Assembly (NCBI GenBank): GCA_015494465.1
Contig: WGBD01000002.1
Coordinates: 3,683 to 67,682 of the forward strand
DNA: 64,000 bases
Source of the DNA: Candidatus Omnitrophota bacterium
GTDB lineage: Bacteria; Omnitrophota; Gorgyraeia; S143-82
Reading direction: 5' to 3'
Shown: one piece after another, positions 27,593 through 64,000 of the stretch
How positions within the stretch are numbered: position 1 is the first letter of the stretch
How the letters are laid out: each line of letters opens with the position of its first letter
Program-made: the position numbers and the translations under genes
The notes under the pieces: generated by a model
What the model was told of the DNA's origin: nothing
What the model saw: the letters and a program-made list of their open reading frames with translations, nothing else
Databases searched by the model: none

Positions 27593-27597
27593 CTACA

Positions 27598-40706: not shown

Positions 40707-40723
40707 AGCGCCCCTCTTTAGAT

Positions 40724-43838: not shown

Positions 43839-43926
43839 TGCAACCTATCCCTTTCCCCGACAGGTAATAGGAAAGGGCGAACACCACGGCCAACAGGAAC
43901 AGCAACCCAAAGGCCTTGAGCACATC

Positions 43927-47804: not shown

Positions 47805-48409
47805 AACCTTATACAGATGCCCTTTTCAAACCGACTCTGATAACGGTAGACCTGACTGCCGGGAAAGAAGTCAATGGCCTTATCTACATCATCGTTCTCC
47901 ACCGGATGAGGTTCACCGTAGAGATCCCTGTGCACCGCATCCACCAGCTCAAATCCTTCCGGAGAAAAATCTACTATCCCGATTAACCCACCGGGACGAA
48001 TCACCCTCTTTATCTCGTGGAGCATCAGAGATGGCTCCTTTACATGATGCCAGAGATTGAAGAGTAGCACCGATCCCACCGAATTATCCGGCAAGGGTAT
48101 CCGTTCACCGGAACTACGCACGAACTTCACATTGGCCTGACCCAGCATACCCTCCAAGAGAGAGGACGCGAACTCTATCGCATCGGGATCGGGATCGAGG
48201 GATATCACATCCAAGCCCATTTCCGCCAAGGCAAGGGTGAAGTACCCCCTCCCGGTCCCTATCTCCAGCACCGGCTCGGGTATCACCTCCAGGAACCTCA
48301 AAAACGCCCTGCGCTCGCCCATAACATCGTATCCCCAGCGCAGGTAGAGTTCTATCTTGTCCCTGAAGTATTCACAGGCAAGTTCAGGAGAAAATAATCT
48401 CATCCCCAC
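47801..48409 (-). CDS. class I SAM-dependent methyltransferase
   Basis: 202 aa. VLEIGTGRGYFTLALAEMGLDVISLDPD (motif I and II). Confidence 0.75.
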   Translation of the reverse strand: MGMRLFSPELACEYFRDKIELYLRWGYDVMGERRAFLRFLEVIPEPVLEIGTGRGYFTLALAEMGLDVISLDPDPDAIEFASSLLEGMLGQANVKFVRSSGERIPLPDNSVGSVLLFNLWHHVKEPSLMLHEIKRVIRPGGLIGIVDFSPEGFELVDAVHRDLYGEPHPVENDDVDKAIDFFPGSQVYRYQSRFEKGICIRL

Positions 48410-49205
48410 AACTCCTTATCTCACAGACCCCGGAAAACCTCTCCCTGAGCCTGCATATCTCATCCATCCCACTGCAGTGCATCGGGTAGAGCTCCTTTAC
48501 TCCCATCGCGTTAAACCCTTCCCCTATCTCGTCCACCAGATCCACACCCTTCTGGTGGAGGTGAAATCCGCCTATAACCGCCCGCACCGGAAGGTTGAGA
48601 GAGCGTCGCGCGTGTTCAACGATGTTCAACACGCCCCGGTGGGAACATCCGGTTATCACCACCACCTCCCCGTTGACCACCAGAAATACCGCCACCTCGT
48701 CCTTGAACTCGTCTTCGTCCCCGTTCTCCAGGACATACTGCTCCGACAGGGACATGGGATAGCCGTAATCAGGTATCTCCCCGGATACGTATATCCCCTC
48801 GTCCACCTGCCTTAACCTGTAGGCAAAGTCCACCATAAACCTCTCCGCCACCTCGTCCCACGGGGCCTTGCCCACACCTATGTACTGCATAAGACTACCC
48901 TGTTTGCGGTACTTGCCGACCCGGACCATGGGGTGGGCGTAGATCACCGTATCCTTCTTCACCACCTCGGAAACCGTAAGCAGGGCACCGGTGTGATCGT
49001 AATGCCCGTGGGAGAGGACGATGAAGGATATGGACTCCAGATCTACACCCATCTGAGAGGCGTTGGAGAAAAAGACATCCTCGGTCTGGCCGAGGTCGAA
49101 CAGGAAGTTCCTGCGGTCGGTCTTCACGAATAGGCTCAGGCCGTGCTCTGCCTTAAGGCCGGAACGAAACACCTTATTCTCCACCAGAACCTTCAGTACT
49201 ACCAT
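48384..49205 (-). CDS. MBL-fold metallo-hydrolase
   Basis: 273 aa. VLSHGHYDHTGAL (HxHxDH). Confidence 0.75.
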   Translation of the reverse strand: MVVLKVLVENKVFRSGLKAEHGLSLFVKTDRRNFLFDLGQTEDVFFSNASQMGVDLESISFIVLSHGHYDHTGALLTVSEVVKKDTVIYAHPMVRVGKYRKQGSLMQYIGVGKAPWDEVAERFMVDFAYRLRQVDEGIYVSGEIPDYGYPMSLSEQYVLENGDEDEFKDEVAVFLVVNGEVVVITGCSHRGVLNIVEHARRSLNLPVRAVIGGFHLHQKGVDLVDEIGEGFNAMGVKELYPMHCSGMDEICRLRERFSGVCEIRSCGDEIIFS

Positions 49206-49277
49206 AATCCACCACCTTTCAATCCGGACGACCCGTTAGAAAAAGCACAACGACTCCGCAGAAATTTTTATTATACC

Positions 49278-50489
49278 TCAACGGGATAGTTCCAGCCAGA
49301 CCTTGAAGGCCTGCTGGTGCTCTGCCACATCGTGGACCCTGAAGATAGACGCCCCCCGGGAATAGGCAAAGAGATTACCGGCAATCGTGCCCGGCAGGCG
49401 ATAAGGGACCTCGCTTCCGGTAAGATAGCCGATAAAGGACTTGCGGGAGATCCCCACCAGTACCGGGCGAACTGTGGAAAAGAGGCCCACGAACCTGAGG
49501 AGTCTATAATTATCCTCCCAGCGTTTGCCGAACCCTATCCCCGGATCCACCACCAGCTGATCCTCGGATATACCCTCCCTCAAGGCCTCTTCCACCCGTT
49601 TGCGCAGGAATTCGTAGACCCGACCCACCACATCGCCCTTCAAGGGATTTCTCTGCATAGTGGTAGGCCTGCCCTTCATGTGCATGATCACCGCGCCCAG
49701 TCGGTGGCGCTTTATCAGGGCCCTCATCCGTGGAGAGCCCACACCGGTGATGTCGTTTATCACATCCGCCCCTTCCTCTACCGCTGCCTTTGCGACATCC
49801 ACTTTATAGGTGTCCACGGAGAGGATTACATCCTTTGCCTCCTTGCGCAGTCTCTTTAGCACCGGCAGGAGCCGTGCCATCTCCTCTTTCGCAGATACCG
49901 GTCGGGCACCGGGCCGGGAGGACTCTGCTCCCAGATCCAATACCCTAGCACCAGCCTCTACCATCCGCATAGCCTTCTCCACCGCCGAATCTGGATCCAG
50001 AACCCCATCCCCGCTGAAGGAATCTGGGGTAAGGTTCACTATCCCCATAATCACCGGCTCACCCAAGGCCAATTCCTTGTCCCGACAGCGCCAGATCTTC
50101 CTTTCATCCTGCCGGCAGAACTCCACCAACGCCTTCAATCCCGCAAAACCTTGCTCCTCCAGTTTCTTGACCAGTCTGCCCAATTGCTTCTCCGTCACCA
50201 AAAGGAGGGCCTTCTCACACCTGCGGTTCTTCAGTATTGCACCTCTGCTTATCCCCAGATCTCCACCGACCGAGAGGGCCTCCTGCTTGAGTATGTTGGC
50301 CTCGTAACTGGTGAGCCCCTCTATAAACAAGACCCTCAACCCCGCCTTGGGGAGCATCCGGTTCACCCCGACGGGGTCTGCCTTGACCTGATTGGTGAGG
50401 ATGTAATAGATTACCTCCCTATCGGGCTGGATAGGTGTAATCTTCACCCGGCGGGTAAATGTAGTGCAACCGGCCTTCTTATCCACCAT
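49278..50489 (-). CDS. folP: dihydropteroate synthase with ~125-aa N-terminal extension of unknown function
   Basis: 403 aa. The Pterin_bind domain starts near residue 130 (IMGIVNLTPDSFSGDG...). Residues 1-125 have no recognisable HPPK (FolK) or DHNA (FolB) motifs. Confidence 0.85.
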   Translation of the reverse strand: MVDKKAGCTTFTRRVKITPIQPDREVIYYILTNQVKADPVGVNRMLPKAGLRVLFIEGLTSYEANILKQEALSVGGDLGISRGAILKNRRCEKALLLVTEKQLGRLVKKLEEQGFAGLKALVEFCRQDERKIWRCRDKELALGEPVIMGIVNLTPDSFSGDGVLDPDSAVEKAMRMVEAGARVLDLGAESSRPGARPVSAKEEMARLLPVLKRLRKEAKDVILSVDTYKVDVAKAAVEEGADVINDITGVGSPRMRALIKRHRLGAVIMHMKGRPTTMQRNPLKGDVVGRVYEFLRKRVEEALREGISEDQLVVDPGIGFGKRWEDNYRLLRFVGLFSTVRPVLVGISRKSFIGYLTGSEVPYRLPGTIAGNLFAYSRGASIFRVHDVAEHQQAFKVWLELSR

Positions 50490-50491
50490 CT

Positions 50492-52375
50492 TCAGCCTGC
50501 CTTATCTTCGGACTCCTCTTCTCCCGCTGGGACTGAGTCCTCCATCCCCAGCAACTGCTTTACCTCTTCCACGGAGAGGGTCTCTTTCTCCAGAAGGTAG
50601 TTTGCCAGACGGTGCAACTCGTCAATGTGCCCCTCCAGTATCGCCTTTGCTTCGTTATAGGCCTCGTCTATTATCTTTTTTACCTCCTCGTCTATCTCCC
50701 TGCCGGTCTCGGTGCTGTACAACCTCTCCACATACCCGTCCACATCCCACATGGGCAAGCCTCCAGGATGCTCCCAGACCACATTCCCAAGGCGTTCGCT
50801 CATACCGTACTGACAGACCATCCTCCTGGCTATCGCCGTGGCCACCTCCAGATCGTTGTGGGCCCCGGTGGTGACCTCGTTGAAGACCAGTTTCTCGGCG
50901 ATCCTGCCCCCGAGGAGGACCTTTATCCTCCCCAGTAACTCGTTCTTCTTTATGAGGTAGCGGTCCTCGGTGGGCCTCTGCAGGGTATACCCGAGGGCGG
51001 CCACACCCCTCGGCACTATGGAGACCTTGTGCAGGGGATCCACCACATCCTTCAGGTAGAGAGACAAGAGGGCGTGACCGGATTCGTGATAGGCCACCAC
51101 CTTCTTCTCCTTGGGGCTTATCGCCCGGGACCTCCTCTGGGGACCGGCCATAACCCTCTCTATGGACTCCTCGAGTTCCTCCATACCCACCGCATCCTTG
51201 TTTCGTCTCGCCGCCAACAGCGCAGCCTCGTTTATTAGGTTGGCCAGATCTGCACCCGAGAACCCCGGCGTCTGCTGGGCTATCCTGCGCAGGTCCACAT
51301 CCGGGGCGAGTTTCACATTCCGGGCGTGGACCTTCAATATCGCCTCCCTACCGTTCATGTCCGGCAGGTCCACCACTATACGCCTATCAAACCTCCCGGG
51401 CCTGAGCAGGGCAGGATCCAGAACATCCGGACGATTTGTGGATGCCATCACGATGATGCCCCGTGAACTGTCAAACCCGTCCATCTCTACCAGCAACTGG
51501 TTAAGGGTCTGCTGACGCTCCTCGTGGGCACCGTAGACCACACCAGCCCGTTTCCCTCCGACCGCATCTATCTCGTCTATGTAGATGATGCACCCCTTGT
51601 TAGTGGCCTGGGCAGCCTTTTTTGCCTGTTCGAAGAGGTCCCTCACCCGGGCAGCGCCCACGCCCACGAACATCTCCACGAAGTCCGATCCGCTTATGCT
51701 GAAGAACGGGACATCCGCCTCTCCCGCGACTGCCTTGGCCAACAGGGTCTTACCGGTACCGGGAGGCCCCACCAAAAGGACCCCCTTGGGTATCTTGCCC
51801 CCGAGACGCTGGTACTTCTGAGGATCCTTGAGAAAGTCTATCACCTCCTTCAATTCTTCCTTGGCCTCGTCGACCCCTGCCACATCGTCGAAGGTCACCC
51901 GCTCGGTAGGATTAGGTGGCCTGGTCCTGGCCCGGCCGAACGACCATATCTTGCCCCCGCCTTGCGCGCTCCGGAAGGCAAAGAACCAGTAGAACAGGAC
52001 TAGGACCAGCACCGGACCGAAGTAATAAAAGACCGAAGACAGGAATGTCTGGGCAGGCCTTATCTCCACCTCTGCCCCGGAGTCTCGCAGGAGTTTCAGT
52101 ATCTCCCTGTCCTCGGGATCCACATACAGGTAAAACCGCCTGCCGTCGGCAAACTTGCCGGTGATAAACCCCTCCTTCTTCACCACCGAGACTATCCTCG
52201 GCTCTCCGGACTTCAGGATGGAGTAGAATTCGGAATAAGAGAGTTCCTTGGGAATACCCTCTGTCCCTAACTCCATAAAGAGGTTGACCAGCAGCCATAT
52301 CGTCATCAGTATCACGAACAGGGCCAAGGGCCCGGGCAGTCTGGGTCTTCTTTGTCCCGGCGTAGGATTTCTCAT
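50492..52375 (-). CDS. ftsH: ATP-dependent zinc metalloprotease FtsH
   Basis: 627 aa. [18 protein letters not shown] Walker A, SRF, HESGHAL zinc motif. Confidence 0.95.
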
Positions 52376-52379
52376 GTGA

Positions 52380-53357
52380 TCACCCCTCTCGTAAGAAAAA
52401 CCTGTACAGTCTCGCCTTCTTTTCTACAGAGACTCCCAATGGCAGGTCGAGGACCGATCCATCGGGCCAACTCCTCATCATTTTAACAAATTCCTTATAA
52501 TGGCGGAAATCTATTTGCCTCAAGTCCCCTCTTAGCCTCCGAATGAGTTCCCTGAAGACCCCCCTGCGCAGGGCCTCATGGAGACTTTCCACAAGGGTCC
52601 GACTGAACACGATTTCGGTATCCGAGGAGAAGACGATACCGCCCGAACATATCCGCCGTACCACCTCGGAGATAAACGCAAAGTCCTCCTGCACCACCTC
52701 CGCCAGGTCCGCCAAGCGCTGTTTTACCTTGGGGTTAAACTCCTTTTCTATCAAGGGCATAAGGATGTGCCTGACCTTGTTTCGGGTAAAGTCAAGGGAC
52801 CTGTTGGTAGGATCCTCCCGCCAAGGTATCCCCCTGCCTTTCAGGTATTCCTCTATCTCCCTGCGGGTTACCCGCAAAAGGGGCCTTATCACCCTTACCC
52901 CCCTTTCTTCCCTGAGGACGCGCATGGCCCTCAATCCCTGAAGGCCACATCCCCGGATGATGTTCAGGAGGACGGTCTCCGCCTGATCGTCCAGATTGTG
53001 GGCAACCGCCAGCCAGCCCGCATTTAAGGACTTTGCCAAACCGAACAAGAATTCGTAGCGTGCCTTTCTCAATACCGCCTCCTTTCCCAGACCCGAGGGA
53101 AAGGTCCCATCAAAGCTGGCGGAATAGAACTCAAGGCCGTACCTCTCGGCCAGGTCGCGGACGAAGGCCTCGTCCTCATCGGACTCTGGCCTCTGTTTGT
53201 GGTTGTAGTGGGCCACGATCGGATCAAGGGAGAACTCCTCCGCAAGGCAGGAAATCGCATCCAGCATCGCCACCGAATCAGGTCCTCCGGAGACGGCTAG
53301 GATCCCCCTACCCTTTAGACCCAGCTCGGAAAGGACCTCTATGACCTTTTCCAGCAT
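52380..53357 (-). CDS. tilS: tRNA(Ile)-lysidine synthetase (short form)
   Basis: 325 aa. PP-loop ILAVSGGPDSVAML. 4 nt from ftsH. Confidence 0.85.
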   Translation of the reverse strand: MLEKVIEVLSELGLKGRGILAVSGGPDSVAMLDAISCLAEEFSLDPIVAHYNHKQRPESDEDEAFVRDLAERYGLEFYSASFDGTFPSGLGKEAVLRKARYEFLFGLAKSLNAGWLAVAHNLDDQAETVLLNIIRGCGLQGLRAMRVLREERGVRVIRPLLRVTRREIEEYLKGRGIPWREDPTNRSLDFTRNKVRHILMPLIEKEFNPKVKQRLADLAEVVQEDFAFISEVVRRICSGGIVFSSDTEIVFSRTLVESLHEALRRGVFRELIRRLRGDLRQIDFRHYKEFVKMMRSWPDGSVLDLPLGVSVEKKARLYRFFLREG

Positions 53358-53398
53358 AAAAGGATTGATCCCACAAACGCGGGAAGGAAATCTCTAAG

Positions 53399-53472
53399 TG
53401 GCGGTGACTGGACTCGAACCAGTGACTCCGCGGGTATGAGCCGCGTGCTCTAACCACCTGAGCTACACCGCC
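53399..53472 (-). tRNA. tRNA with CAU anticodon (elongator Met or tRNA-Ile2/lysidine type)
   Basis: GGCGGTG-TA-GCTC AGGTGGTTA GAGC-A-CGCGG CTCATAC CCGCG-GAGTC-ACTGG TTCGAGT CCAGT-CACCGCC-A. G1-C72 is paired and there is no GGG/CCC anticodon stem, so it is not an initiator. Confidence 0.8.
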
Positions 53473-53513
53473 ATCTTTAGAAATTTATATAGCACAAAAC
53501 CCGTCTAAATCCA

Positions 53514-53545
53514 ACAAAAAAGCCGACAGGCAAACGCCTGCCGGC
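53514..53545 (-). terminator. Rho-independent terminator downstream of the PEP-CTERM protein gene
   Basis: Minus strand GCCGGCAGGC-GTTT-GCCTGTCGGC hairpin followed by TTTTTTG. Confidence 0.5.
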
Positions 53546-53569
53546 CGGGATCTCGCAACCTCAAACGCC

Positions 53570-54439
53570 TCAGGCCCTCTTGCGCCTGCGGACCACACCC
53601 AGACCGACCAGCCCGATACCAAGCAAAACCAAGGAAGAGGGCTCAGGCACCATGTCCCCGGAACCGGTGGCACCACCGTCCTTGATGGTCCAGTTCCAGG
53701 TAGAGGCGTCGTCAGGATCGCCGTCGCTGAAGTCCGGACGACTGGTGCTGTTGAAGGAGAAGGATATGTCCGCACCGTTGTGCTGGGTATTGGTGTCGAA
53801 GTACGGGGCCCAGGCACCACCTATCACATCGAACAGCATCTCCGAATACACCGCAGTTTGAGTAGCAAACCCATAATAAGTGTAGGGGGAACCGGCTATA
53901 GTTCCCATAGGTGCACCTATCAGACGGAGGACTAAGGTCCCGTTAGTGATGGGGGGGAAGGTGCGATTCCCAGTCCTATCAGTAACCGCTGGTGCAGAGG
54001 AGGGATACTGACCGTAGCCCGTAGGCGGATGCATGTAGACGTCTACGACACCGCCCCAACCGTAGTGGAACTGGATACCGCCTACCTCCTGGACCGCTAT
54101 GTGATCCAGACCGTAGAAGAAGGCAGTGAGCTCGTAATCGGCAGTCGCTGCATCGTAAAACCCGGTGATACTGGTGATCCTCAGGATGGAGTAGGCATCC
54201 TCCTTCCCGTCAGCAAAACCATCCCAGACACCGTCGTCGTATACACCAAAGACATTATCTTGGGGATTGAAGTGATAGAAGGGGTTGGTATTCAACGCAG
54301 TGCAACTGCTTCCACTGCAGTCGTACCCCCTACCCCAGTCATAAAGCCAGTCCATGTTGATGGTCACCGGAGTAGCACTGGCCCTCAGGCCGAACAGGAG
54401 CATCATCACCAACAGCGCGTACAGCCTTCCGAGTCTCAT
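53570..54439 (-). CDS. PEP-CTERM sorting-domain secreted protein
   Basis: 289 aa. Signal peptide. C-terminal ...VPEPSSLVLLGIGLVGLGVVRRRKRA (PEP motif, TM helix, Arg cluster). Y/W/G/D-rich body. Confidence 0.75.
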   Translation of the reverse strand: MRLGRLYALLVMMLLFGLRASATPVTINMDWLYDWGRGYDCSGSSCTALNTNPFYHFNPQDNVFGVYDDGVWDGFADGKEDAYSILRITSITGFYDAATADYELTAFFYGLDHIAVQEVGGIQFHYGWGGVVDVYMHPPTGYGQYPSSAPAVTDRTGNRTFPPITNGTLVLRLIGAPMGTIAGSPYTYYGFATQTAVYSEMLFDVIGGAWAPYFDTNTQHNGADISFSFNSTSRPDFSDGDPDDASTWNWTIKDGGATGSGDMVPEPSSLVLLGIGLVGLGVVRRRKRA

Positions 54440-54499
54440 CCTTCCTACCTCCTTGACTTATAGATGCCTCCAATTTTCGTTCCTTGGCACCAAATTATT

Positions 54500-54516
54500 A
54501 TGCCACAGGTGTGCCA
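54500..54516 (-). promoter_or_regulatory. sigma54-type promoter candidate for the PEP-CTERM protein gene
   Basis: Minus strand TGGCAC-acctg-TGGCAT (consensus TGGCAC-N5-TTGCW, one mismatch), ~65 nt upstream of the ATG. Confidence 0.5.
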
Positions 54517-54602
54517 ACTTGCAAATTATCTAAAGCTCATTAATTGGCAATAGGTTAGGACTTTGATCATTTTCCATTGGGGCCGTCCTGCTGTAAAAAA
54601 TC

Positions 54603-54627
54603 TTGACACCTGTCAAAAAAGTTGACA
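54603..54627. promoter_or_regulatory. palindromic upstream activator site (three TTGACA/TGTCAA half-sites) ~100 bp upstream of the sigma54 -24 element
   Basis: TTGACAccTGTCAAaaaagTTGACA. TGTCAA-N5-TTGACA is a perfect inverted repeat (TGT-N11-ACA, NifA/NtrC-like bEBP site geometry). Confidence 0.4.
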
Positions 54628-54650
54628 CCCCCTCAGCGCGAATGAGGGGA
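54628..54650 (-). terminator. hairpin (7-bp stem CCCCTCA/TGAGGGG) at the gspH-like stop codon, weak terminator candidate
   Basis: A perfect inverted repeat overlaps the stop codon. The U-tract is displaced (GUGUCAACUUUUUU), so efficiency is uncertain. Confidence 0.3.
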
Positions 54651-55102
54651 GACAACGCTGATCTTTCCCGACAAAGAAGAGGCACAGACATCCTTTTGCT
54701 TCCCCAAGTCGTTCCACAGGTGCACGCAGGTCCGTTCCTTGGCCTCTCCGGTGTGGAGGAACTCCACTGGCTGGTCTAAGCGGGCCGAGACACCGCTGGG
54801 CAGGCAAAACTCCTCGCCGACGGGATTCCACTTGCCATTCTGTCGAATCGCTATCCTTAGACAATCCCCTTCTAACCACACCCTGGACTGGGTGCGATCC
54901 AACTGGGCCAGGGATCGGGCCCGGCCGAGGACCTCTATAACCCCCCGCAAGGCAGACTTCAACCTCGCCCGCTGGCTGGCCCCTCTAAAAAAAGGGACCG
55001 CCACTCCCAACATAAGCGAGATTATCACCAGAACGACCAGGACCTCTATAAGGGTGAAGGCCCTCTTACCAGTTGGTGATGTCGTCAGCCACGCCACCGT
55101 CG
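54633..55102 (-). CDS. type II secretion/type IV pilus minor pseudopilin (GspH/FimT-like)
   Basis: KRAFTLIEVLVVLVIISLMLGVAVP prepilin N-terminus. Start set to the ATG at 55102 (MEKTT...). The track ORF starts further upstream and overlaps gspG more. Confidence 0.7.
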
Positions 55103-55497
55103 TCTTTTCCATTGGGACCAAAGGAATACAGGTCAAACTTATACTTGCGATGCACACCCGGATAGCGGTACTGATAGGGATTGCCCCACGGATCCAGAAA
55201 CCGCCCCTCCTGGTCTAACTGGTCTTCCTTGAGCTCCAGATAGGGCCCGTACCAGTTGGGATCGTCGGAATCGGTGAGGGCGGAGACGACTGCCTTTATG
55301 TCCCCCTTGGGATAGCTGCCCATGTCCTGCTGGTACTGCTCCAGCGCGGACTCCAAGGCAGCGATCTCCGCCTTTGCCCGGGATATGCTCGCCCGCCTGC
55401 GCGCGGTCTGATTGGCGGTCATTATAAATCCCGCCAGTATCCCGATAATCGCGATTACCACCAATAGCTCTATAAGGGTAAAACCGCCTCGCCTCAT
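55066..55497 (-). CDS. gspG: type II secretion system major pseudopilin GspG
   Basis: 143 aa. [23 protein letters not shown]..., DPWGNPYQY is the GspG hallmark. Confidence 0.9.
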   Translation of the reverse strand: MRRGGFTLIELLVVIAIIGILAGFIMTANQTARRRASISRAKAEIAALESALEQYQQDMGSYPKGDIKAVVSALTDSDDPNWYGPYLELKEDQLDQEGRFLDPWGNPYQYRYPGVHRKYKFDLYSFGPNGKDDGGVADDITNW

Positions 55498-56354
55498 ACT
55501 GCCTCCCCCCTCAAGGCCTCCAAAATAGGAAGCACCAGCCTAACACCCTTTATCGGCATAAGGTGAACACCTGCACAAAAAGGCCTTAGATCCTCTATAA
55601 GCCTCAGGGCCTGATCTATGCCGTATTTTATCTTATCCTGTGGGTTGTCCAACCTCTCTATCTCGTCTATCATCCATCCCGGCACCTCTATGCCCGGGAT
55701 GTTGGCGTTCATAAATCTGGCCATCCTCTCCGAGCGCAACGGGATAATCCCTACCAGTATGGGCAGACCCAGATCTCCAACTTTGTCCAAAAATCTCAAA
55801 AACACCTCTTTCGTATAGACCGCCTGGGTCTGGAAGAACCTCGCCCCGGCAGAGACCTTGGCAAGGCACTTCTGTCTCTCCACCTCCAGGTCCTCGGCGC
55901 CGGGATTCGTTGCAGCGCCTACGCACAGACTGGTATTCTTGCTTATCCAACCTATAAACGAGACGGTATCCAGATCGTACACCGCCTTGGCCTCAGGTTC
56001 GGTTCCCATGTCGGGCGGATCGCCTCCCAGCACCAAAACATTCCTTATCCCAAAGCTCTCCAAGGCGTAAACATCACCCTTTAAGGCCAAGCGGTTCCTG
56101 TCCCTGCAGGTGTATTGGACTATGGGGTTGGCCCCTGACCGCAGTGCCCATAACCCCGCCCCCCAAGGGCTCATCTTGAGGTTCGCCCCGGGCATGTCGG
56201 TGATGTTGACCGCATCTGCCCAACCTGCGACCGCCTTCACCTCATCCAGAAACGCCGATACATCCGAGGAACCGGGGGGGTTCACCTCCAGCGTGACGAG
56301 AAACGGCCTTTCTTTGGAGAGCTCCTCAATGGACTTCACCCGGGCTCCTATCAT
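55494..56354 (-). CDS. metF: 5,10-methylenetetrahydrofolate reductase
   Basis: 286 aa. MTHFR TIM barrel (VTLEVNPP...NITDMPGANLKMSPW...). Confidence 0.9.
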   Translation of the reverse strand: MIGARVKSIEELSKERPFLVTLEVNPPGSSDVSAFLDEVKAVAGWADAVNITDMPGANLKMSPWGAGLWALRSGANPIVQYTCRDRNRLALKGDVYALESFGIRNVLVLGGDPPDMGTEPEAKAVYDLDTVSFIGWISKNTSLCVGAATNPGAEDLEVERQKCLAKVSAGARFFQTQAVYTKEVFLRFLDKVGDLGLPILVGIIPLRSERMARFMNANIPGIEVPGWMIDEIERLDNPQDKIKYGIDQALRLIEDLRPFCAGVHLMPIKGVRLVLPILEALRGEAV

Positions 56355-57220
56355 CTGCCCTCCAGTCTCCTCTTCAAGAGCAGGTACAGGTTCTCCATAA
56401 GCATGACCGTGGTAACCGGGCCAACCCCTCCCGGAACCGGGGTTATCAGCCCTGCCCTTGCCCTGGCGGTCTCGAACTCAACATCCCCAACTATCTTAGA
56501 CCCCACCACATTTATCCCTACGTCTATAACCACTGCGGACTCCCTAATCCAATCCCCCTTTATCAACCTCGCCTTGCCCACCGCAGAGATCACTATCTCC
56601 GCCCGGGATATGTGTTCCGCCAAGAGTCCCCTTTCGGATGTGGCAAGGTGGCACACCGTTACCGTTGCCCCCCTCTGCAAGAGCATCAGGGCCAAGGGCC
56701 GACCTACCACCGCCCCTTCACCTATCACCACGCACTCCTTGCCCCTTAGAGAGACATCACAGCGGTCCAATATACGCATCACCGCCCGTGGCGTTGGGGG
56801 GTATATCGTATCCTCCTGCCGGAAAAACATACCGTATATGTGATAGGGGCTCATGCCTTCCACATCCTTATCTGGTGAAAGGAACCTCAAGGCATCGTAG
56901 ACATCCACCCCTTCGGGAAAGGGGGTATGCAGGATTATCCCATCTATAGTCTCGTCCCGACAGGCCATCTTTACCGCGGAGTTGAGGTCCTCCTGATAGG
57001 GCCGAACCTGTCGGTGTTTGTACTCTATACCCAATCGCTGACAGAGCCTTTGCTGGGCCCGGATGTAGGCCTGGGACTGGGGATTTATCCCCGACTCTAT
57101 ACCTAATAGCACCGGGGCCCGCCCGAGGTCCTTGCGGAGCTCCTCGAAGGCCCGCTCCAAGGACTGGGCAATCTCCTCGGCAATCAGCCGGCCGTTTATC
57201 ACATTACCCTCTATAACCAT
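56351..57220 (-). CDS. folD: bifunctional methylenetetrahydrofolate dehydrogenase/cyclohydrolase
   Basis: 289 aa. ...VIDVGINVV...PVPGGVGPVTTVMLMENL. Confidence 0.95.
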   Translation of the reverse strand: MVIEGNVINGRLIAEEIAQSLERAFEELRKDLGRAPVLLGIESGINPQSQAYIRAQQRLCQRLGIEYKHRQVRPYQEDLNSAVKMACRDETIDGIILHTPFPEGVDVYDALRFLSPDKDVEGMSPYHIYGMFFRQEDTIYPPTPRAVMRILDRCDVSLRGKECVVIGEGAVVGRPLALMLLQRGATVTVCHLATSERGLLAEHISRAEIVISAVGKARLIKGDWIRESAVVIDVGINVVGSKIVGDVEFETARARAGLITPVPGGVGPVTTVMLMENLYLLLKRRLEGR

Positions 57221-57292
57221 CTTCTCTTCTCCTCACAGGTCAAAACCACAACTCTGCATAGTATCACGCCCTACGGGAATTTCAACACCCTA

Positions 57293-58183
57293 TTAGGCCC
57301 GAGGATGAAACCTCTTGTAAGTCTCCACGATTCGCCTCTCCTGTAGATGGGTGTATATCTGGGTGGTGGCAATAGAACTGTGGCCGAGGAGTTCCTGTAC
57401 CACCCTGAGATCCGCACCTCCGGACAGCAGTTCGGTGGCGAAGGTGTGACGCAGGGCGTGGGGGCCCTTTCCCTCCGATCGTATCCCCGCCTTCGCCATG
57501 GCCTTCTTCACTATACCCCAGAGGGACTGCCGGCACAGCCTTTTGCCTCTCAACGAAAGGAAGACGACCCCGCTCTCCCTCCCCTTCAACAAGGCCGGCC
57601 GTTCCTGCTCCAGATAGGCACGCAACAACCTCTCCGCCCTCCTGCCAAAGGGGACCACCCGCTCCTTGCCTCCCTTGCCTACCACCCGCAGGAACCGGGA
57701 ATAGAAGTTGACCTCAGGCAGGGTCAGGGAACACAGCTCCGAGGCCCGCAATCCCGTCGAGAATAAGAGCTCTATACAACTGGCATCGCGCCAGCGTACC
57801 GGAGATTTACCATCCACGCAGGCACCTATCATCCTATCCACATCCTCTGCGGACAGGGTAGAAGGCAGGTCCACCGGCAGTTTCAACCCCGGAAAAGAAG
57901 AGATCGGATTTCTTTTGAGGACACCCTCCCGGTACAAAAAACGGAAGAAACCCCTTATCGCAGAGAGACACCTGTTTACCGACCTCGGGGATCTGCGCAC
58001 CCTTCTCAAATATTCCAGGAATTCACCCAAGACATCGCCGTCGACATCGGTATAATCTCGTCGGGTAGACTGCAAAAAATCAGCGAACAATTGCAGATCC
58101 CGTTGATAGGCGATCAGGCTGTTCACCGATAGGCCCCGCTCCACGCTCAAGTAGTCAAGAAAGGCATCTATCAGATCTCGCAT
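57293..58183 (-). CDS. xerC: tyrosine site-specific recombinase XerC/XerD
   Basis: 296 aa. R...HxxR...Y catalytic residues (ALRHTFATELLSGGADLRVVQELLGHSSIATTQIYTHL). Confidence 0.9.
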   Translation of the reverse strand: MRDLIDAFLDYLSVERGLSVNSLIAYQRDLQLFADFLQSTRRDYTDVDGDVLGEFLEYLRRVRRSPRSVNRCLSAIRGFFRFLYREGVLKRNPISSFPGLKLPVDLPSTLSAEDVDRMIGACVDGKSPVRWRDASCIELLFSTGLRASELCSLTLPEVNFYSRFLRVVGKGGKERVVPFGRRAERLLRAYLEQERPALLKGRESGVVFLSLRGKRLCRQSLWGIVKKAMAKAGIRSEGKGPHALRHTFATELLSGGADLRVVQELLGHSSIATTQIYTHLQERRIVETYKRFHPRA

Positions 58184-58803
58184 AGGAAAGGATTCGTTCT
58201 CCTCTCTTCACCTATGGTGGTGCTCTCACCGTGCCCTGGACATACCCGTATCTCATCCGGCAGTTCTAACAACCTCACCAGGGAAGTTTGAAGAGATTCG
58301 TAATCGCTCCCCGGCAGATCCGTGCGCCCTACACTTCCTCTAAAAAGTGTGTCGCCAGAGAAGAGGATTCCCTCTACCGCGAGACAAACGCTACCCTTAG
58401 TATGACCTGGCGTGTGCAGGACGGTAACCTCTATAGGCCCAATACTTACCCTGCCCTCTTTCAACGGAAAACTCATGGGAGGAGACGTTACCTCCATACC
58501 AAACATAGTAGAGAGGTTGAGCTCCGGATCGAGCAACATGTCCGCATCGTAGGGGTGGATGTAAATCGGAGCGGAGAAAAGCCGGTTTCCCGAGATGTGA
58601 TCGAAGTGACCATGCGTGTTCAGGACTGCCACTACCGACAGTCCAAGCTCCTCCACCAGATCCAGCACATCCCTGCTGGCGGGATCTATCACTAGGCATT
58701 CCTCTCCCGAGATGACCAGGTAAGAGTTGGTCTCCAGCGGGCCGTTTATCAGTGTCTCTACCTTAATCATATCTACAGTTATTCCACCACTAACCTCTCC
58801 CAC
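58171..58803 (-). CDS. MBL-fold hydrolase (hydroxyacylglutathione hydrolase-like)
   Basis: 210 aa. VLNTHGHFDHISGN. Confidence 0.75.
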   Translation of the reverse strand: MGEVSGGITVDMIKVETLINGPLETNSYLVISGEECLVIDPASRDVLDLVEELGLSVVAVLNTHGHFDHISGNRLFSAPIYIHPYDADMLLDPELNLSTMFGMEVTSPPMSFPLKEGRVSIGPIEVTVLHTPGHTKGSVCLAVEGILFSGDTLFRGSVGRTDLPGSDYESLQTSLVRLLELPDEIRVCPGHGESTTIGEERRTNPFLCEI

Positions 58804-59279
58804 AGCTCTGGAGGCTGTTTGCTAGGCAAAAATCGATTGTGGAACCTACGCCTTATCTCGTCCACCTTCTTTTTGGCCCTGGTAATCGGGAGGTTGGCCT
58901 CCTTTAACTTCAAGACCTCCTTGTATATGGCCCTTAACTGGTTAGCGTACCGCTCGATCTCTTTCTTCTCTTCTTCGTAGTCTGAAGGCAGATAATCCGC
59001 AAGGATCTCTAGGTTATACACCGCCTGCTCCATGCTCTTTTTGAGACGCTTTCGACTGTCCGAGTCCATCGCAGACTTGAACTCGTCCATCCACACCTTC
59101 GCAAACACGAAGTGGCGCTCGTAAACCACCTTGGGGTCGACGCTGTATTCCTCAGATGGGGCTCGCACCGTGGTCTTTTCCTTCTTGGGCTCCCTCACGA
59201 ACTTCTTGGCCAGGGAGCCACAGCCCGCCAACAAGAGCCCTGCCAAAACGACGAGAGCAATTTGCCTTAACATCGTCAT
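58779..59279 (-). CDS. lipoprotein, hypothetical
   Basis: 166 aa. Lipobox LLLAGC. Lys/Glu-rich. Translationally coupled (4-nt overlap) to the upstream GspE ATPase gene. Confidence 0.55.
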   Translation of the reverse strand: MTMLRQIALVVLAGLLLAGCGSLAKKFVREPKKEKTTVRAPSEEYSVDPKVVYERHFVFAKVWMDEFKSAMDSDSRKRLKKSMEQAVYNLEILADYLPSDYEEEKKEIERYANQLRAIYKEVLKLKEANLPITRAKKKVDEIRRRFHNRFLPSKQPPELWERLVVE

Positions 59280-60961
59280 TCCTCTGCGGTTACTCTTAAG
59301 ACCTCCTCAAAAGTGGTAATCCCCTGGAGAAAGAGTTCAAAGGTATTTTGCCTCAATGTGCGCATCCCACAGTGTTTGACTGCAAACTCCTTTATCTGAT
59401 CCGATGTGGCACCGTCCAAGACCATCTGTCTGATCTCATCGTTCATAGTCAGCGTCTCTATGGTGGCTATCCTCCCAAGATATCCGGTCTTCCTGCACTT
59501 CTCACAGCCCTTTCCCCTATAGAATATCACCCCTTCGGGATATTCAAAACCCTCTTTCTCAAATACCTCTCTAGGTATGTCCACCGGCTCCTTACAATGA
59601 GGGCATATCCTTCGGCAGAGACGCTGGGCAGAAGTCAATACCAAAGAAGAGGCGACCAAGAACGGTTCCACCCCCATGTCCACGAGCCTGGTAATCGCCC
59701 CTGCTGCGTCGTTGGTGTGGAGGGTGCTCAAGACCAAGTGCCCAGTCAAGGAAGCCTTGACCGCTATGTCCGCGGTTTCGGAGTCTCGTATCTCTCCCAC
59801 CAAGACGATGTCAGGGCTTTGTCTCAGTATCGCCCTCAACGCCGAGGCAAAGGTTAGACCTATGTCGTGATTGACCTGAATCTGGGTCAACCCCTCCACC
59901 TGATACTCAACCGGATCCTCTACGGTGATTATGTGCACCTCCGGTCGGTTTAGCTCCTGCAACACCGAATACAGCGTAGTAGACTTACCGCTACCAGTAG
60001 GTCCGGTAACCAATATGAGTCCGTAAGGATGCTTTATCGCCCGCTTAAACTCCTCTAGAGGCTGGGGTAAAAACCCTAACTTATCCAATCCTACTTGGAG
60101 GTTGCTCTTGTCCAAGACCCTCAAGACGAACTTCTCCCCAAAGACCGTTGGGAGGGACGAGACGCGGAAGTCTATCAACTTATCTTTGTGGCGCATCCTA
60201 AATCTGCCGTCTTGAGGCACGCGCCACTCAGTGATGTCCATACCCGACATTATCTTAAGCCTGGTCAAGATAGCGGGTTGGCGGTTCTTAGGGAGGGTGA
60301 AGAACTCGTGTAGGGCACCGTCTATCCTATAACGCAGGCGTATACAGTCCTCCATGGGCTCTATGTGGATGTCGCTAGCGCGTTGGTTTAATCCCTCCTT
60401 TATGACCAAGTTGACCATCCTCACTATCGGGGCCTGCTCGCTCTCGTCCACCACCGTTGAAGAGGCCATAAGCTCGTCGACATTGTCCATCAGGGCTTCT
60501 ATATCCTCGTCTAAGAAGTCCTCATCTCTAGAAGCGGTCCTCAGACTGGATAGAAACTCCTCGATGTCTGGTGGAAAGGCCAAGACCGGCACGATCTCGT
60601 AACCAGTTATCGCCGAGATCTCATCTTTTACCAAGACATCTAGCACATCCATCATCACCAAAGACATCGTATCCCCTAGGGACCCTAGAGGAATAACTTT
60701 TTTCTCCCACATAAGGTTAAAAGGAATGAGATCTGAACGAATGTTCTCCACCTTCAACTTAGTGATGTCTATCCAAGGAATCTGGAGCTCGTCGGATATC
60801 GTCTCCATGAGAGTGATCTTCTGGAGTGGTGTCTTCTCTACGATAACCGTAAACAGATCCTTATCCGATTCGAAACTCCGTATCTCGTTGACCAGATTCG
60901 AGCCAAACCGCCTCTCCAGTATCTCCAATACCCGTCTATCTATAAACTTTTGCCTAGCCAT
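59276..60961 (-). CDS. gspE: GspE/PilB-family secretion ATPase (type II secretion / type IV pilus assembly)
   Basis: 561 aa. N-terminal T2SSE_N domain, Walker A VTGPTGSGKSTTLYS, Asp/His boxes, C-terminal CxxC...CxxC zinc motif. Confidence 0.9.
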   Translation of the reverse strand: MARQKFIDRRVLEILERRFGSNLVNEIRSFESDKDLFTVIVEKTPLQKITLMETISDELQIPWIDITKLKVENIRSDLIPFNLMWEKKVIPLGSLGDTMSLVMMDVLDVLVKDEISAITGYEIVPVLAFPPDIEEFLSSLRTASRDEDFLDEDIEALMDNVDELMASSTVVDESEQAPIVRMVNLVIKEGLNQRASDIHIEPMEDCIRLRYRIDGALHEFFTLPKNRQPAILTRLKIMSGMDITEWRVPQDGRFRMRHKDKLIDFRVSSLPTVFGEKFVLRVLDKSNLQVGLDKLGFLPQPLEEFKRAIKHPYGLILVTGPTGSGKSTTLYSVLQELNRPEVHIITVEDPVEYQVEGLTQIQVNHDIGLTFASALRAILRQSPDIVLVGEIRDSETADIAVKASLTGHLVLSTLHTNDAAGAITRLVDMGVEPFLVASSLVLTSAQRLCRRICPHCKEPVDIPREVFEKEGFEYPEGVIFYRGKGCEKCRKTGYLGRIATIETLTMNDEIRQMVLDGATSDQIKEFAVKHCGMRTLRQNTFELFLQGITTFEEVLRVTAEE

Positions 60962-60965
60962 AACA

Positions 60966-62675
60966 TCACTTAGCGGTTACCCTGAAGACCTCTTCCAGAC
61001 TGGTTATACCTTCGGCTGCCTTCTTTATCGCATCCTCCCGCATCGTCCTCATACCTTCCGCAACAGCAGCCTCACGGATCTCCGGTTCCTCTGCGCCCTT
61101 GGCGATCAACTCTCTTATCTTCGGGGTGAGGATCATGATCTCCGCAACGTTGGTTCTACCCTTGTAACCTATCTGGAGGCACTTGTTACATCCCTTTGGT
61201 CGATAAAATGTCGTTCCCACATACTCTTTGTTAATCCTCAGCCTCTCAGCCATCTCTTCGGTGAGAGTATAAGGCTCCTTACAGTTCTCACAGAGCTTCC
61301 TCAACAACCTCTGTCCCATAATCCCTATCACCGAGGCGGTTATCAAGAAAGGCTCAACCCCCATGTTCACCATCCTCACTACGGCACCGGGAGCGGTGTT
61401 AGTATGTAGAGTGGTCAATACGAGGTGCCCGGTCAAGGCAGCCTTTATGGCTATGTCCATCGTCTCGTGATCGCGGATCTCACCTATCAGGATTATGTCC
61501 GGATCCTGCCTTAGTATGGACCTCAAGGCGGATGCAAATGTCAATCCCACCTCGTGGTTTACTTGTACCTGGTTGATGCCTCTCAATTGATACTCTACCG
61601 GATCCTCGACGGTGATTATGTTCTTCTCTGGAGCATCGATGTAGCGCAGTACTGAGTAGAGTGTAGTCGACTTACCACTTCCCGTGGGACCGGTTACTAT
61701 AAACATCCCGTGAGGTCTTCTCACCGCCCGCTTTATCTTTTCCAGGGTATCGGGATAGAACCCAAGGTTGTCCAGATCCAGCATCACCGCACCCTTGTCC
61801 AATATGCGCAAACAGGCCTTTTCCCCAAAGGCCGACGGTACTATAGAGATCCTGAAGTCCACGATCCTGCCACCGATCTTCATGCGGAACTTGCCATCTT
61901 GAGGAAGGCGGTGTTCGGATATGTCCATCCTTCCCAAGACCTTGATACGAGATATTATCGCCTCGTGCAAGTACCTAGGGGGAGATTCCACCTCCTGAAG
62001 GATCCCGTCGACCCTATACCTTACCCGCATGTGCTTCTCGAACGGCTCTATGAATATGTCACTGGCCTTCAGCTTCACTCCGGTCTCCACGATCTTGTTC
62101 ACCGCCCGCACCGCGGGCGCCATCTGCAGTTCTACATTCTCAACGCCTTCCTCTTCCTCTTTTTTCTCTGGAACCAGCTCTATATCCTCCTCACCGAAGT
62201 CCTCCAACAGTCCCTGGAGTGCCTCGGCGCTGTTCTCGTCCTCTTCCTCTCCCAGTTTCCCAATCAATTCTTTAACCTCTTCTTCAGAGGTAAGACACAC
62301 CGCCACCTGCTTACCAGTGCGCAGTCGCACATCGTCCACTGCTATGTAATTCCAAGGATCCACCATGGCTAGGGTAAGGACATCCTTCACCAAGGATATT
62401 GGGACCACGCGGTAGCGTTTGATCACATCTATAGGTATAAGTTCCAATATCTCGCTGGAGAGCTTGAGCCTAGAGAGCTTGAAGAAGGGCACCCCAAGTC
62501 CCTTCGCCAAGACCATGGTGAGCATCTCTTTTTCGACGATGTTCAGCTGGATTATCGCATCAAAAAAGTCTATGTTCTTCTCCCTAGCGTACCCGACTAT
62601 CTTCGGGATGTCTGCACGGGAGATAATCTCCTCTTTTATGAGGATGTTAACCAGTTCCTCCTTAAGCCAGGCCAT
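60966..62675 (-). CDS. GspE/PilB-family secretion ATPase, second tandem paralogue
   Basis: 569 aa. T2SSE_N + VTGPTGSGKSTTLYS + CENCKEP...GCNKC tetracysteine. An acidic linker separates the domains. Confidence 0.9.
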   Translation of the reverse strand: MAWLKEELVNILIKEEIISRADIPKIVGYAREKNIDFFDAIIQLNIVEKEMLTMVLAKGLGVPFFKLSRLKLSSEILELIPIDVIKRYRVVPISLVKDVLTLAMVDPWNYIAVDDVRLRTGKQVAVCLTSEEEVKELIGKLGEEEDENSAEALQGLLEDFGEEDIELVPEKKEEEEGVENVELQMAPAVRAVNKIVETGVKLKASDIFIEPFEKHMRVRYRVDGILQEVESPPRYLHEAIISRIKVLGRMDISEHRLPQDGKFRMKIGGRIVDFRISIVPSAFGEKACLRILDKGAVMLDLDNLGFYPDTLEKIKRAVRRPHGMFIVTGPTGSGKSTTLYSVLRYIDAPEKNIITVEDPVEYQLRGINQVQVNHEVGLTFASALRSILRQDPDIILIGEIRDHETMDIAIKAALTGHLVLTTLHTNTAPGAVVRMVNMGVEPFLITASVIGIMGQRLLRKLCENCKEPYTLTEEMAERLRINKEYVGTTFYRPKGCNKCLQIGYKGRTNVAEIMILTPKIRELIAKGAEEPEIREAAVAEGMRTMREDAIKKAAEGITSLEEVFRVTAK

Positions 62676-63953: not shown

Positions 63954-64000
63954 CCCTCACTGCCTCCTTCACAATCTCTGCGCTCTGTGGTATATTTAAA

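Follow-up and report, generated by a model that had tools for sequence, protein, structure and literature searches.

A predicted sigma-54-dependent PEP-CTERM box with two tandem activator dyads in an uncultured bacterial lineage

Genomic environment of the PEP-CTERM gene

The window analyzed here, i.e. the whole 64,000-nt stretch of DNA, carries on its minus strand a gene encoding a protein with a PEP-CTERM sorting signal, located behind two pseudopilin genes. The window corresponds to positions 314156-378155 (reverse strand) of contig JALUEM010000003.1 in assembly GCA_027052805.1. The features of the locus are listed below in the direction of transcription.

55066..55497, minus strand: GspG-type pseudopilin gene (Pfam/NCBIfam matches), a conserved neighbour in every locus
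~54633..55115, minus strand: GspH-like minor pseudopilin gene (Pfam/NCBIfam matches), also a conserved neighbour in every locus
54627..54611, minus strand: promoter-distal putative activator dyad, TGTCAActtttTTGACA / TGTCAACTTTTTTGACA, a perfect 6+6 inverted repeat of the form TGT-N11-ACA
54608..54592, minus strand: promoter-proximal putative activator dyad, TGTCAAgatttTTTACA / TGTCAAGATTTTTTACA, 17 nt, ending in TTTACA, with one mismatch
54545..54575, minus strand: A/T-rich block, GGAAAAT...TAAC-N3-TTG, core at 54557..54548, centre at about -62
54524..54497, minus strand: sigma-70-like promoter, TTGCAA-16-TGgCATAAT with an extended -10, scoring 9/12 plus TG in a consensus scan
54516..54500, minus strand: predicted sigma-54 -24/-12 element, TGGCACacctgTGGCAT, with GG at 54515-54514 and GC at 54503-54502
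~54490 (54488..54492), minus strand: predicted transcription start, from the standard -24/-12 geometry with C54502 as -12
54448..54452, minus strand: ribosome-binding site GGAGG, 8 nt before the ATG and kept in orthologs
53570..54439, minus strand: PEP-CTERM target gene, 289 aa, with a signal peptide, a beta-rich domain of a small orphan family and the C-terminal sorting signal VPEPSSLVLLGIGLVGLGVVRRRKRA
53521..53546, minus strand: intrinsic terminator, 11-bp stem with 8 G-C pairs followed by TTTTTGTT, closing a single-gene transcript

The gspH-like gene ends with a TGA codon at 54635..54633, 5 nt from the distal dyad, and the intergenic gap before the target gene is 193 nt long. The target ORF matches PF07589 (E = 9e-7) and TIGR02595 (28.4 bits, cutoff 16), which confirms the PEP-CTERM ORF that had been proposed downstream of the promoter from the DNA sequence alone. 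The N terminus of the protein, MRLGRLYALLVMMLLFGLRASA, is a signal peptide, and its tail runs from a P-E-P motif through a hydrophobic helix to a terminal basic cluster. The family is small: only seven close homologs were found, with 35 matches among 1.84e9 representatives, and all 18 inspected members carry PEP-CTERM-type tails. The PEP-CTERM tail alone, used as a protein query, returned only a 45-aa fragment, and a remote homolog (P0028) sits on a 994-bp contig without upstream DNA. There is one PEP-CTERM ORF per readable locus. We rejected an identification of the protein as PepA (NF033554, cutoff 80 bits), as the full protein scores 39.3 bits and gives no match once the tail is removed, the match thus being due to the tail alone.

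An Rfam search (E <= 1) of the gap and the leader detected no cis-regulatory RNA, the only matches being to tRNA. Over the whole window, the RNA search gave three tRNAs only. Neither rpoN, nor an exosortase gene, nor an activator gene with GAFTGA or Walker A motifs was found in the window, in the 10 kb past its left edge (together ~74 kb of the 559-kb contig) or in the related loci. The genome is expected to encode an exosortase, because strict co-occurrence of exosortase and PEP-CTERM proteins has been reported (Haft, Paulsen, Ward & Selengut 2006, PMC1569441).

A predicted sigma-54 promoter with two tandem dyads

The original prediction placed a sigma-54-type element, TGGCAC-N5-TGGCAT, on the minus strand upstream of the PEP-CTERM ORF. 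This element is indeed present at 54516..54500. The distance to the ORF, given then as ~65 nt, is 60 nt when measured from the end of the element to the ATG at 54439. TGGCACacctgTGGCAT has a single mismatch to TGGCAC-N5-TTGCW (TGGCA for TTGCA), and its GG and GC are one helical turn apart. Matches to TGGCACN5TKGCW are rare by chance, with two found in the 64-kb window versus 0.03 expected from shuffles. From the predicted start, the 5' leader would be ~51 nt long. Within the window, fliD is preceded by another canonical sigma-54 element, TGGCACGGATCTTGCA, which suggests that the organism uses sigma-54. No RpoN-box motif was found in the window or the related loci by motif search. The promoter is predicted to depend on sigma-54 in vivo.

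Three alternating half-sites had also been described upstream of the promoter. All three exist on the plus strand (TTGACA at 54603-54608, TGTCAA at 54611-54616 and TTGACA at 54622-54627), but the count has to be corrected, as a fourth half-site, TGTAAA at 54592-54597, completes two dyads. These form a tandem of 17-bp dyads separated by 2 bp, with centres 19 bp apart. Both lie upstream of TGGCAC, the distal dyad at a distance of 94 nt and the proximal one at 75 nt; relative to the predicted start, their centres are at about -129 and -110. Allowing one mismatch or none, TGTCAAN5TTGACA occurs twice in the window versus 0.12 times expected, and both copies are these dyads, adjacent to each other and at enhancer distance from the sigma-54 element.

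Conservation in related loci

The comparison took in eight syntenic loci, seven of which include the upstream region, and locus L132, which encodes an ortholog with 36% protein identity. The eight loci share the gene order folD-metF-gspG-gspH, a gap of 168-249 nt and the PEP-CTERM gene, with tilS-ftsH further on. The pattern TGGCA...T.T.GCATA is invariant in all eight loci and in L132, against a mean column identity of 55% in the rest of the intergenic region. This invariance supports the sigma-54 reading of the element. TAAC...TTG is likewise invariant across the alignment of the eight loci.

Each of the seven loci whose sequence extends far enough has a TGT-N11-ACA 17-mer at -109 to -112, counted from the T of TGGCAC. 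This distance holds while the position of the upstream stop codon varies from -85 to -168 (83 nt), and in three loci (L003, L006 and L008) the distal dyad is located within the coding sequence of the upstream gene. Most relatives have a degenerate form of the proximal dyad, e.g. AGTAAAATTTCTGGTCA. L132 has the promoter, the block at -43 and tandem 17-mers ending in TTTACA, TTTACA and TTGACA with a period of 19-20 bp; its dyad array is shifted by ~6 nt.

Between the dyads and the promoter, the A/T-rich block has invariant columns (alignment A1) at 54571, 54564, 54560, 54557-54554 (TAAC), 54550-54548 (TTG) and 54545. The offset of the block, -40 to -43, is shared by all loci; L132 has it as well, with the sequence AAACCTGTTGATT. 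The block may be the site of a bending protein of the IHF/HU type. Naming IHF itself would be a guess from sequence: the conserved TAAC-N3-TTGAAA block matches the IHF core consensus, WATCAANNNNTTR, at 6-8 of nine positions, which 131-342 of 500 shuffles equal, and the statistics do not support an assignment to IHF. Several proteobacterial boxes have all nine IHF-core positions at a similar offset.

The PEP-CTERM box and its candidate activator

A PEP-CTERM box has been described as a 17-nt motif 1 that ends in TTTACA and is sometimes repeated, combined with a 17-nt -24/-12 motif 2 (PMC1569441). The spacer between the 3'-most motif 1 and the sigma-54 motif is 62.8±10.6 nt (range 32-92), the sigma-54 motif lies 71±38 nt from the start codon, and the genes typically form single-gene operons with upstream gaps of >200 nt (PMC1569441). 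The box is the predicted target of PrsR (TIGR02915), together with PrsK (TIGR02916) and PrsT, and was said to be confined to Proteobacteria (PMC1569441).

A genome scan with the pattern TGTCAAN5TTNACA-N{65,95}-TGGCACN5TKGCW gave at least 119 loci, versus ~8 calculated for random sequence. Of the 93 downstream ORFs that are complete among the matches listed, at least 14 match TIGR02595, and tails of the PEP-, VPLPA- or VPVP-type were present in 19 of the 119 matches listed, giving at least 19 exosortase-substrate genes. The matches listed include a true PepA (L023, NF033554, 146.6 bits) and an XDD4 exosortase-dependent protein. Among these 19 listed loci, the gap between dyad and TGGCAC is 73-76 nt in 13 and 94-95 nt in four, the window having 75 and 94 nt, and the right half-site is TTTACA in 17. 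The dyads had been read as sites for an enhancer-binding protein; their fixed distance to the promoter, the match to the published PEP-CTERM box and the same spacings before proteobacterial PEP-CTERM genes all support this reading.

Which activator binds there is a separate question, since other NtrC/AtoC-class activators use the same dyad and PrsR cannot be called from the site alone. Among the matches listed, the same dyad and spacing precede 15 TolC-family and nine ADOP/FtsX permease genes of Bacteroidales. The pattern also occurs at AtoC-like modules of Desulfuromonadales, where small Zn-ribbon genes stand beside AtoC-like activators and the dyad lies directly downstream of the AtoC-like genes; these activators score 381-453 bits on TIGR02915, below the PrsR cutoff of 502.6. 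All PEP-CTERM-positive matches listed belong to Alpha-, Beta- or Gammaproteobacteria, except one from Desulfococcaceae (Desulfobacterota), and the lineage studied here shows traits unusual for Proteobacteria, among them a DUF1559 pseudopilin. It is therefore possible, if somewhat doubtful, that the same sigma-54 and enhancer architecture is served here by a non-PrsR activator of the NtrC/AtoC family that uses the common TGTCAA-N5-TTKACA dyad. Against this, the target belongs to the PEP-CTERM genes, which share with the TolC-family genes of Bacteroidales the rank of largest functional class among the matches listed. The TTTACA half-site and the 75-nt spacing are also typical of the PEP-CTERM class. 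A PrsR-like protein, as in the PrsK/PrsR-type system named in the original prediction, is the most likely candidate. A metagenome scan with the lineage-type pattern (-12 as TGGCATA) returned two matches, one at a TolC-type gene and one chance-like, and no member of the lineage.

Overlap with a sigma-70-like promoter

The consensus scan found TTGCAA/CATAAT with an extended -10 TG over the sigma-54 element, and both promoters predict one start near 54490. This raises the question whether a sigma-70 promoter is mainly or additionally used, with the palindromes acting as operators or -35-like boxes and TGGCAC being incidental, or a second overlapping promoter as at glmY. The sigma-70-like element is good in the window and in L001, L003 and L006 to L008, and the version in L003, L006, L007 and L008 (TTGAAA-16-TGgCATAAT) is even closer to the consensus. 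The TTGACA/TTTACA half-sites are -35-like, and the consensus scan gave a further candidate, TTTACA-17-GAAAAT. Still, we regard this explanation as unlikely. Were sigma-70 the only factor, the invariant TGGCA would sit in the spacer, where conservation is unexpected. In addition, the -10 is degraded in L005 (CATATA), L002 (CATATT) and L132 (CATACA): the critical final T is lost in L005 and L132, and L002 lacks the TG and has a 15-nt spacer, while GG and GC remain invariant throughout. The dyads, for their part, have the sequence and the placement of known enhancer sites.

The idea that the palindromes are not protein sites at all, but RNA hairpins terminating the gspG-gspH transcript, can draw on their start just past the gspH-like stop codon, on UUGACaggGUCAA followed by GAUUUUUU, which looks like a weak terminator, and on a G+C-rich hairpin (CCCCUCA...UGAGGGG) spanning the stop codon, but it is highly improbable and was rejected: the terminator scan found nothing at the palindromes, their fold is unremarkable (z = -0.96, with 32 of 200 shuffles folding equally well), half-sites change without kept pairing (TGTTAA...ATGACA, TGTAAA...TTAACA), the T-run is not conserved, and the distance is kept to the promoter rather than to the stop codon, with the palindrome lying inside the upstream CDS in the three loci named above.

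Proposed mechanism and significance

The elements are present, are non-random and match known PEP-CTERM boxes, and the orthologous loci preserve both their sequence and their placement. Altogether, we consider it probable (roughly 0.8) that the locus carries a classical enhancer-dependent promoter of a single-gene PEP-CTERM operon, i.e. a PEP-CTERM box.

Under this enhancer-dependent reading, sigma-54 RNA polymerase would bind TGGCAC-N5-TGGCAT (54516..54500) as a closed complex that does not start by itself. A response regulator of the NtrC/AtoC class, most likely PrsR-like and phosphorylated by a PrsK-like kinase, would then occupy, in dimeric form, the pair of neighbouring 17-bp dyads with centres at about -129 and -110 and assemble into an ATPase oligomer. 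Looping of the intervening DNA would allow the activator to reach the polymerase, with the TAAC-N3-TTG block (about -62) and its putative bending protein probably aiding the bend, and ATP hydrolysis would open the promoter. The resulting transcript would start near 54490 and comprise the ~51-nt leader with GGAGG and the 289-codon gene, ending at the terminator at 53546..53521. The product would be exported and its PEP-CTERM tail processed by an exosortase. The candidate activator, the bending protein and the start site in this scheme are predictions from sequence.

The switch is of a known type and well preserved, and its only new point is its occurrence in an uncultured lineage; the result leaves existing knowledge of sigma-54 or PEP-CTERM regulation unchanged. 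It does illustrate that the sigma-54/enhancer module of exosortase substrates is recognizable from sequence alone, and that the module, with both enhancer positions about two helical turns apart, has been kept almost base for base in an uncultured lineage. The target is a protein without characterized relatives, from a small PEP-CTERM family tightly linked to pseudopilin genes, and the cis-element offers a ready query for its cognate activator and for other members of the regulon in a scan of the full genome.

Regarding the host, a DUF1559 pseudopilin, a strong strand bias and a lineage known only from metagenome-assembled genomes are hints of a non-proteobacterial origin. A further hint is that no non-proteobacterial PEP-CTERM match was among the matches listed, apart from the Desulfococcaceae one.

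A broader combined reading would be that the host lies outside Proteobacteria, that the only gene under the box, always behind gspG-gspH, codes for a PEP-CTERM protein of an orphan family, and that sigma-54 and sigma-70 promoters overlap in part of the lineage. Taken as a whole, we consider this combination speculative and rather unlikely. If true, the overlapping promoters would allow basal and inducible expression, as at glmY, and the PrsR-type enhancer module would be older or more mobile than described and would be coupled here to a pseudopilus-type export apparatus.

Comparison with known systems

At glnAp2, NtrC binds TGC-N11-GCA dyads with centres about three helical turns apart. The locus described here resembles enhancers of the NtrC/AtoC class in having two adjacent 17-bp dyads ~100-140 bp upstream of a -24/-12 element, a strong one beside a weaker one, which would suit cooperative oligomerization. 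It differs from glnAp2 in its half-sites, which follow TGT-N11-ACA instead of TGC...GCA, and in the 19-bp distance between the dyad centres.

The glmY gene of E. coli combines GlrR sites (TGTC-N10-GACA), IHF sites and perfectly overlapping sigma-54 and sigma-70 promoters. Our locus likewise has several TGTC...GACA-type dyads, an A/T-rich stretch that may be bent and a sigma-70-like -10 over the -12 with one shared predicted start. However, the dyad of glmY spans 18 bp versus 17 bp here, its target is a small RNA versus a protein gene here, and the sigma-70 overlap described here is not kept in all relatives. The NifA upstream activator sequence, TGT-N10-ACA, also places a symmetrical TGT...ACA dyad before a sigma-54 promoter, but with N10 versus N11 here, and there is no nif context at this locus.

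Among PEP-CTERM genes, pepA of Aquincola tertiaricarbonis RN12 requires RpoN and is transcribed from a mapped site downstream of TGGCAC, and the pepA promoters of floc-forming Betaproteobacteria, including Zoogloea resiniphila, have TGGCAC...-12 with a predicted upstream enhancer (PMC9850573). These systems and ours share a PEP-CTERM gene behind a TGGCAC-type sigma-54 promoter, in our case a predicted one, with a predicted enhancer, whereas the target protein here is not PepA. A DAP-chip assay of DVUA0057, a PrsR-like regulator of D. vulgaris, showed enrichment of five PEP-CTERM promoters (PMC3333781).

The closest counterpart is the published PEP-CTERM box itself. The locus resembles it in a motif ending in TTTACA (TGTCAAGATTTTTTACA) with a repeat (TGTCAACTTTTTTGACA), a 75-nt spacer and a start codon 60 nt past the -24/-12 motif, and its gene forms a monocistronic unit behind a gap of 193 nt. 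The proteobacterial boxes in our scan carry TGTCAA-N5-TTTACA at 73-76 or 94-95 nt, as in the window. Three differences stand beside this likeness: the -12 is TGGCAT here, where TTGCT or TTGCA is usual; the distal dyad (94 nt), and not the proximal one, is better conserved in this lineage; and the host is an uncultured lineage, whereas the published box is proteobacterial.

Genomic organization of the predicted promoter region

All relevant genes of this region are carried by the minus strand. The coding-strand bias of the window (1..64000) is extreme, with about 57 of 60 genes on that strand, including translation genes, flagellar genes and the type II secretion ATPase gene. The target ORF matches PF07589 (E 9e-7) and TIGR02595 (28.4 bits, cutoff 16). 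A gap of 193 nt separates it from the GspH-like gene, and tRNA-Met, tilS and ftsH follow, in this order, beyond its terminator.

Features of the locus and of the flagellar region
55066..55497, minus: GspG-type pseudopilin gene, upstream of the target ORF
54635..54633, minus: stop codon of the GspH-like minor pseudopilin gene, upstream of the target ORF
54627..54611, minus: distal dyad, TGTCAACTTTTTTGACA, as read from the sequence
54608..54592, minus: proximal dyad, TGTCAAGATTTTTTACA, 2 nt after the distal dyad
54516..54500, minus: -24/-12 element of sigma-54 type, TGGCACACCTGTGGCAT
54452..54448, minus: GGAGG, within the 60 nt between the -24/-12 element and the ATG
54439, minus: ATG of the target ORF, 60 nt after the -24/-12 element
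53570..54439, minus: target ORF, 289 aa, with signal peptide and C-terminal PEP-CTERM sorting signal
53546..53521, minus: intrinsic terminator, 3' of the target ORF
40862..40847, minus: second canonical sigma-54 element, TGGCACGGATCTTGCA, inside flaG (40724..41107), 141 nt before the fliD start

The original prediction placed a promoter and palindromic half-sites upstream of the PEP-CTERM gene; both are present and both patterns exceed chance expectation. In the 64-kb window, TGGCACN5TKGCW occurs twice (0.03 expected), as does TGTCAAN5TTGACA with at most one mismatch (0.12 expected), the latter two occurrences being adjacent in this gap. The half-sites had been counted as three, and these exist, but four were found, and they pair into two complete dyads of 17 bp whose centres are 19 bp apart. 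The promoter-to-ATG distance, put at about 65 nt, is corrected to 60 nt. The 75 nt from the proximal dyad to the -24/-12 element contain GGAAAATGATCAAAGTCCTAACCTATTG.

Conservation of the element and alternative readings of the gap

Only 7 close homologs of the target protein were found among 5.8 billion sequences. The gene order folD-metF-gspG-gspH-[gap]-PEP-CTERM gene, with tilS-ftsH later, is common to every homolog on a long enough contig. Eight aligned upstream regions showed 55% mean column identity and two invariant blocks: T-G-G-C-A, T, T and G-C-A-T-A of the -24/-12 element, and A..T..TAAC...TTG about 40 nt upstream of it. When sequences were anchored on TGGCA, a TGT-N11-ACA 17-mer started at -109 to -112 in 7/7 loci reaching that far, and a second, weaker dyad at -89 to -93. 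The end of the upstream gene varies from -85 to -168, and in three syntenic loci (L003, L006 and L008) its final codons extend into the dyads. Since the distance to the promoter stays while the upstream gene end shifts, the dyads belong to the promoter and not to the upstream gene. P0030, a remote homolog 36% identical to the target, shows the same synteny in another assembly; its upstream region retains TGGCACagtttTGGCATA and, at -43, AAAC-N3-TTGATT, along with three 17-mers, spaced with a period of 19-20 bp, whose ends are TTTACA, TTTACA and TTGACA.

A sigma-70 promoter, TTGCAA-16-TGgCATAAT (54524..54497), overlaps the -12 element and would share its start; a dual promoter is possible in part of the lineage. 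The match is good in the window and in the syntenic loci L001, L003 and L006-8, but it is poor in L002, and the final T of the -10 is lost in L005 and in L132, the locus of the distant ortholog, while GG/GC is unchanged throughout. A sigma-70-only model also leaves the invariant TGGCA in the spacer unexplained. The palindromes were rejected as a terminator: the terminator scan was empty there, the fold is unexceptional (z = -0.96), and the half-sites differ among relatives without kept base-pairing, their position being tied to the promoter. A search for cis-regulatory RNA gave no Rfam match in the gap. The predicted sigma-54 promoter with upstream activator sites holds, being conserved in orthologs and matching the PEP-CTERM box.

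The conserved TAAC-N3-TTG block resembles an IHF core no better than shuffles do. As a perfect IHF core stands at much the same offset in several proteobacterial boxes, a DNA-bending role for this block is a reasonable guess.

The target protein and its family

When 1.84 billion representatives were searched in full with HMMER, 35 remote relatives emerged, and every inspected family member carries a PEP-CTERM-type tail. The target is a member of a small PEP-CTERM family, as yet uncharacterised, that includes the remote homologs P0028-P0061 and the product of L132, with the motifs DWGR.Y, EDAYS, ELTAFFYG.DH, TDG.LVLRL and GG.WAPYFDT. Its identification as PepA was rejected, the weak NF033554 match being due to the sorting tail alone. 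The mature domain is predicted to be beta-rich (moderate confidence, pLDDT 69.5) and matched no solved structure. Wherever a locus offers enough context, a gspG-gspH pseudopilin pair lies directly upstream of the family gene, an arrangement hinting at a functional tie to a pseudopilus-type export system.

Elsewhere in the window, a prepilin-type protein with DUF1559 (PF07596; 11290..11802, minus strand) adjoins a chemoreceptor gene, and is also found in locus L128 (460..927). This domain is characteristic of Planctomycetota, Verrucomicrobiota and related candidate phyla, a hint that the host may lie outside the classical proteobacteria.

Sigma-54 use and the putative activator

The second sigma-54 element, which precedes fliD, points to use of sigma-54 by the organism and may be an internal fliD promoter within flaG; no TGT-N11-ACA-type dyad was found upstream of it. 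FliD, the flagellar cap protein (36237..40706, minus strand), is unusually large (1489 aa). In addition to its FliD_N and FliD_C ends, it contains an F5/8 type C (discoidin) domain and two flagellin-IN motifs, a make-up suggesting that the flagellar tip binds carbohydrate.

The pattern found in the window, TGTCAAN5TTNACA-N{65,95}-TGGCACN5TKGCW, was used to scan 596 Gb of sequence, one genome for each species, and at least 119 loci matched, against about 8 calculated for random sequence. Among the matches listed, the same dyad with a 75-77 nt gap occurs in Bacteroidales at no fewer than 15 TolC-family and 9 ADOP/FtsX-permease genes. In Bacteroidales MAG loci including L014, L022, L029, L037, L044, L070, L078, L089, L103, L109 and L117, TolC-family and ADOP/FtsX-type ABC permease genes follow a TGGCAC -24/-12 element that is itself preceded by TGTCAA-N5-TTTACA. 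These sites resemble a widespread efflux regulon under sigma-54 control.

In Desulfuromonadales, the dyad lies just 3' of AtoC-like response-regulator genes scoring 381-453 bits (cutoff 502.6) with TIGR02915, the model of PrsR, a regulator linked to the proteobacterial PEP-CTERM box. At four such loci (L039, L041, L052 and L104), the activator gene ends just before TGTCAA-N5-TTGACA, and a sigma-54 promoter 95 nt past the dyad is followed by a small Zn-ribbon gene (CPNCS...CPxCN), a predicted compact, conserved activator-plus-target module. The TGTCAA-type dyad is not private to PrsR. Because it also occurs at these Bacteroidales and Desulfuromonadales genes, we name the putative activator of the window's promoter only by class: an enhancer-binding response regulator of the NtrC/AtoC class, most probably a PrsR-like one. 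No activator, RpoN or exosortase genes were found in the window, the related loci or the 10 kb past the window's left edge on its 559-kb contig (GCA_027052805.1, JALUEM010000003.1).

Comparison with the PEP-CTERM box

The PEP-CTERM box precedes 99 of 167 proteobacterial PEP-CTERM genes (Haft et al. 2006, PMC1569441). It is a 17-nt motif with TTTACA at its 3' end, repeated in some cases, followed by a spacer of 62.8±10.6 nt (range 32-92) and a 17-nt sigma-54 motif located on average 71 nt before the start codon (PMC1569441). The genes behind it are mostly single-gene operons with preceding gaps >200 nt, and its phylogenetic profile agreed with PrsR, PrsK (TIGR02916) and PrsT (PMC1569441). RpoN is needed for Aquincola pepA, whose transcription start lies 3' of a TGGCAC element (PMC9850573), and five PEP-CTERM promoters were enriched in a DAP-chip assay with the PrsR-like DVUA0057 of D. 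vulgaris (PMC3333781).

Among the scan matches listed, at least 14 of 93 complete first downstream ORFs matched TIGR02595, and further ones matched the VPLPA and PEPxxWA variants. Tail inspection gave at least 19 exosortase substrates among the 119, including a true PepA (NF033554, 146.6 bits) and an XDD4 exosortase-dependent protein. The hosts of the 19 listed are Alpha-, Beta- and Gammaproteobacteria, save one Desulfococcaceae. Their right half-site is TTTACA in 17/19, and the dyad-to-TGGCAC gap is 73-76 nt in 13/19 and 94-95 nt in 4/19.

The window element agrees with the box of Haft et al. 2006 in every DNA-level feature, and is predicted to be a textbook PEP-CTERM box, in which tandem activator dyads lie upstream of a sigma-54 promoter. 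It is a known kind of element, here preserved in an uncultured lineage, and its dyads (75 and 94 nt) occupy the same two positions as in the proteobacterial boxes among the matches listed, about two helical turns apart.
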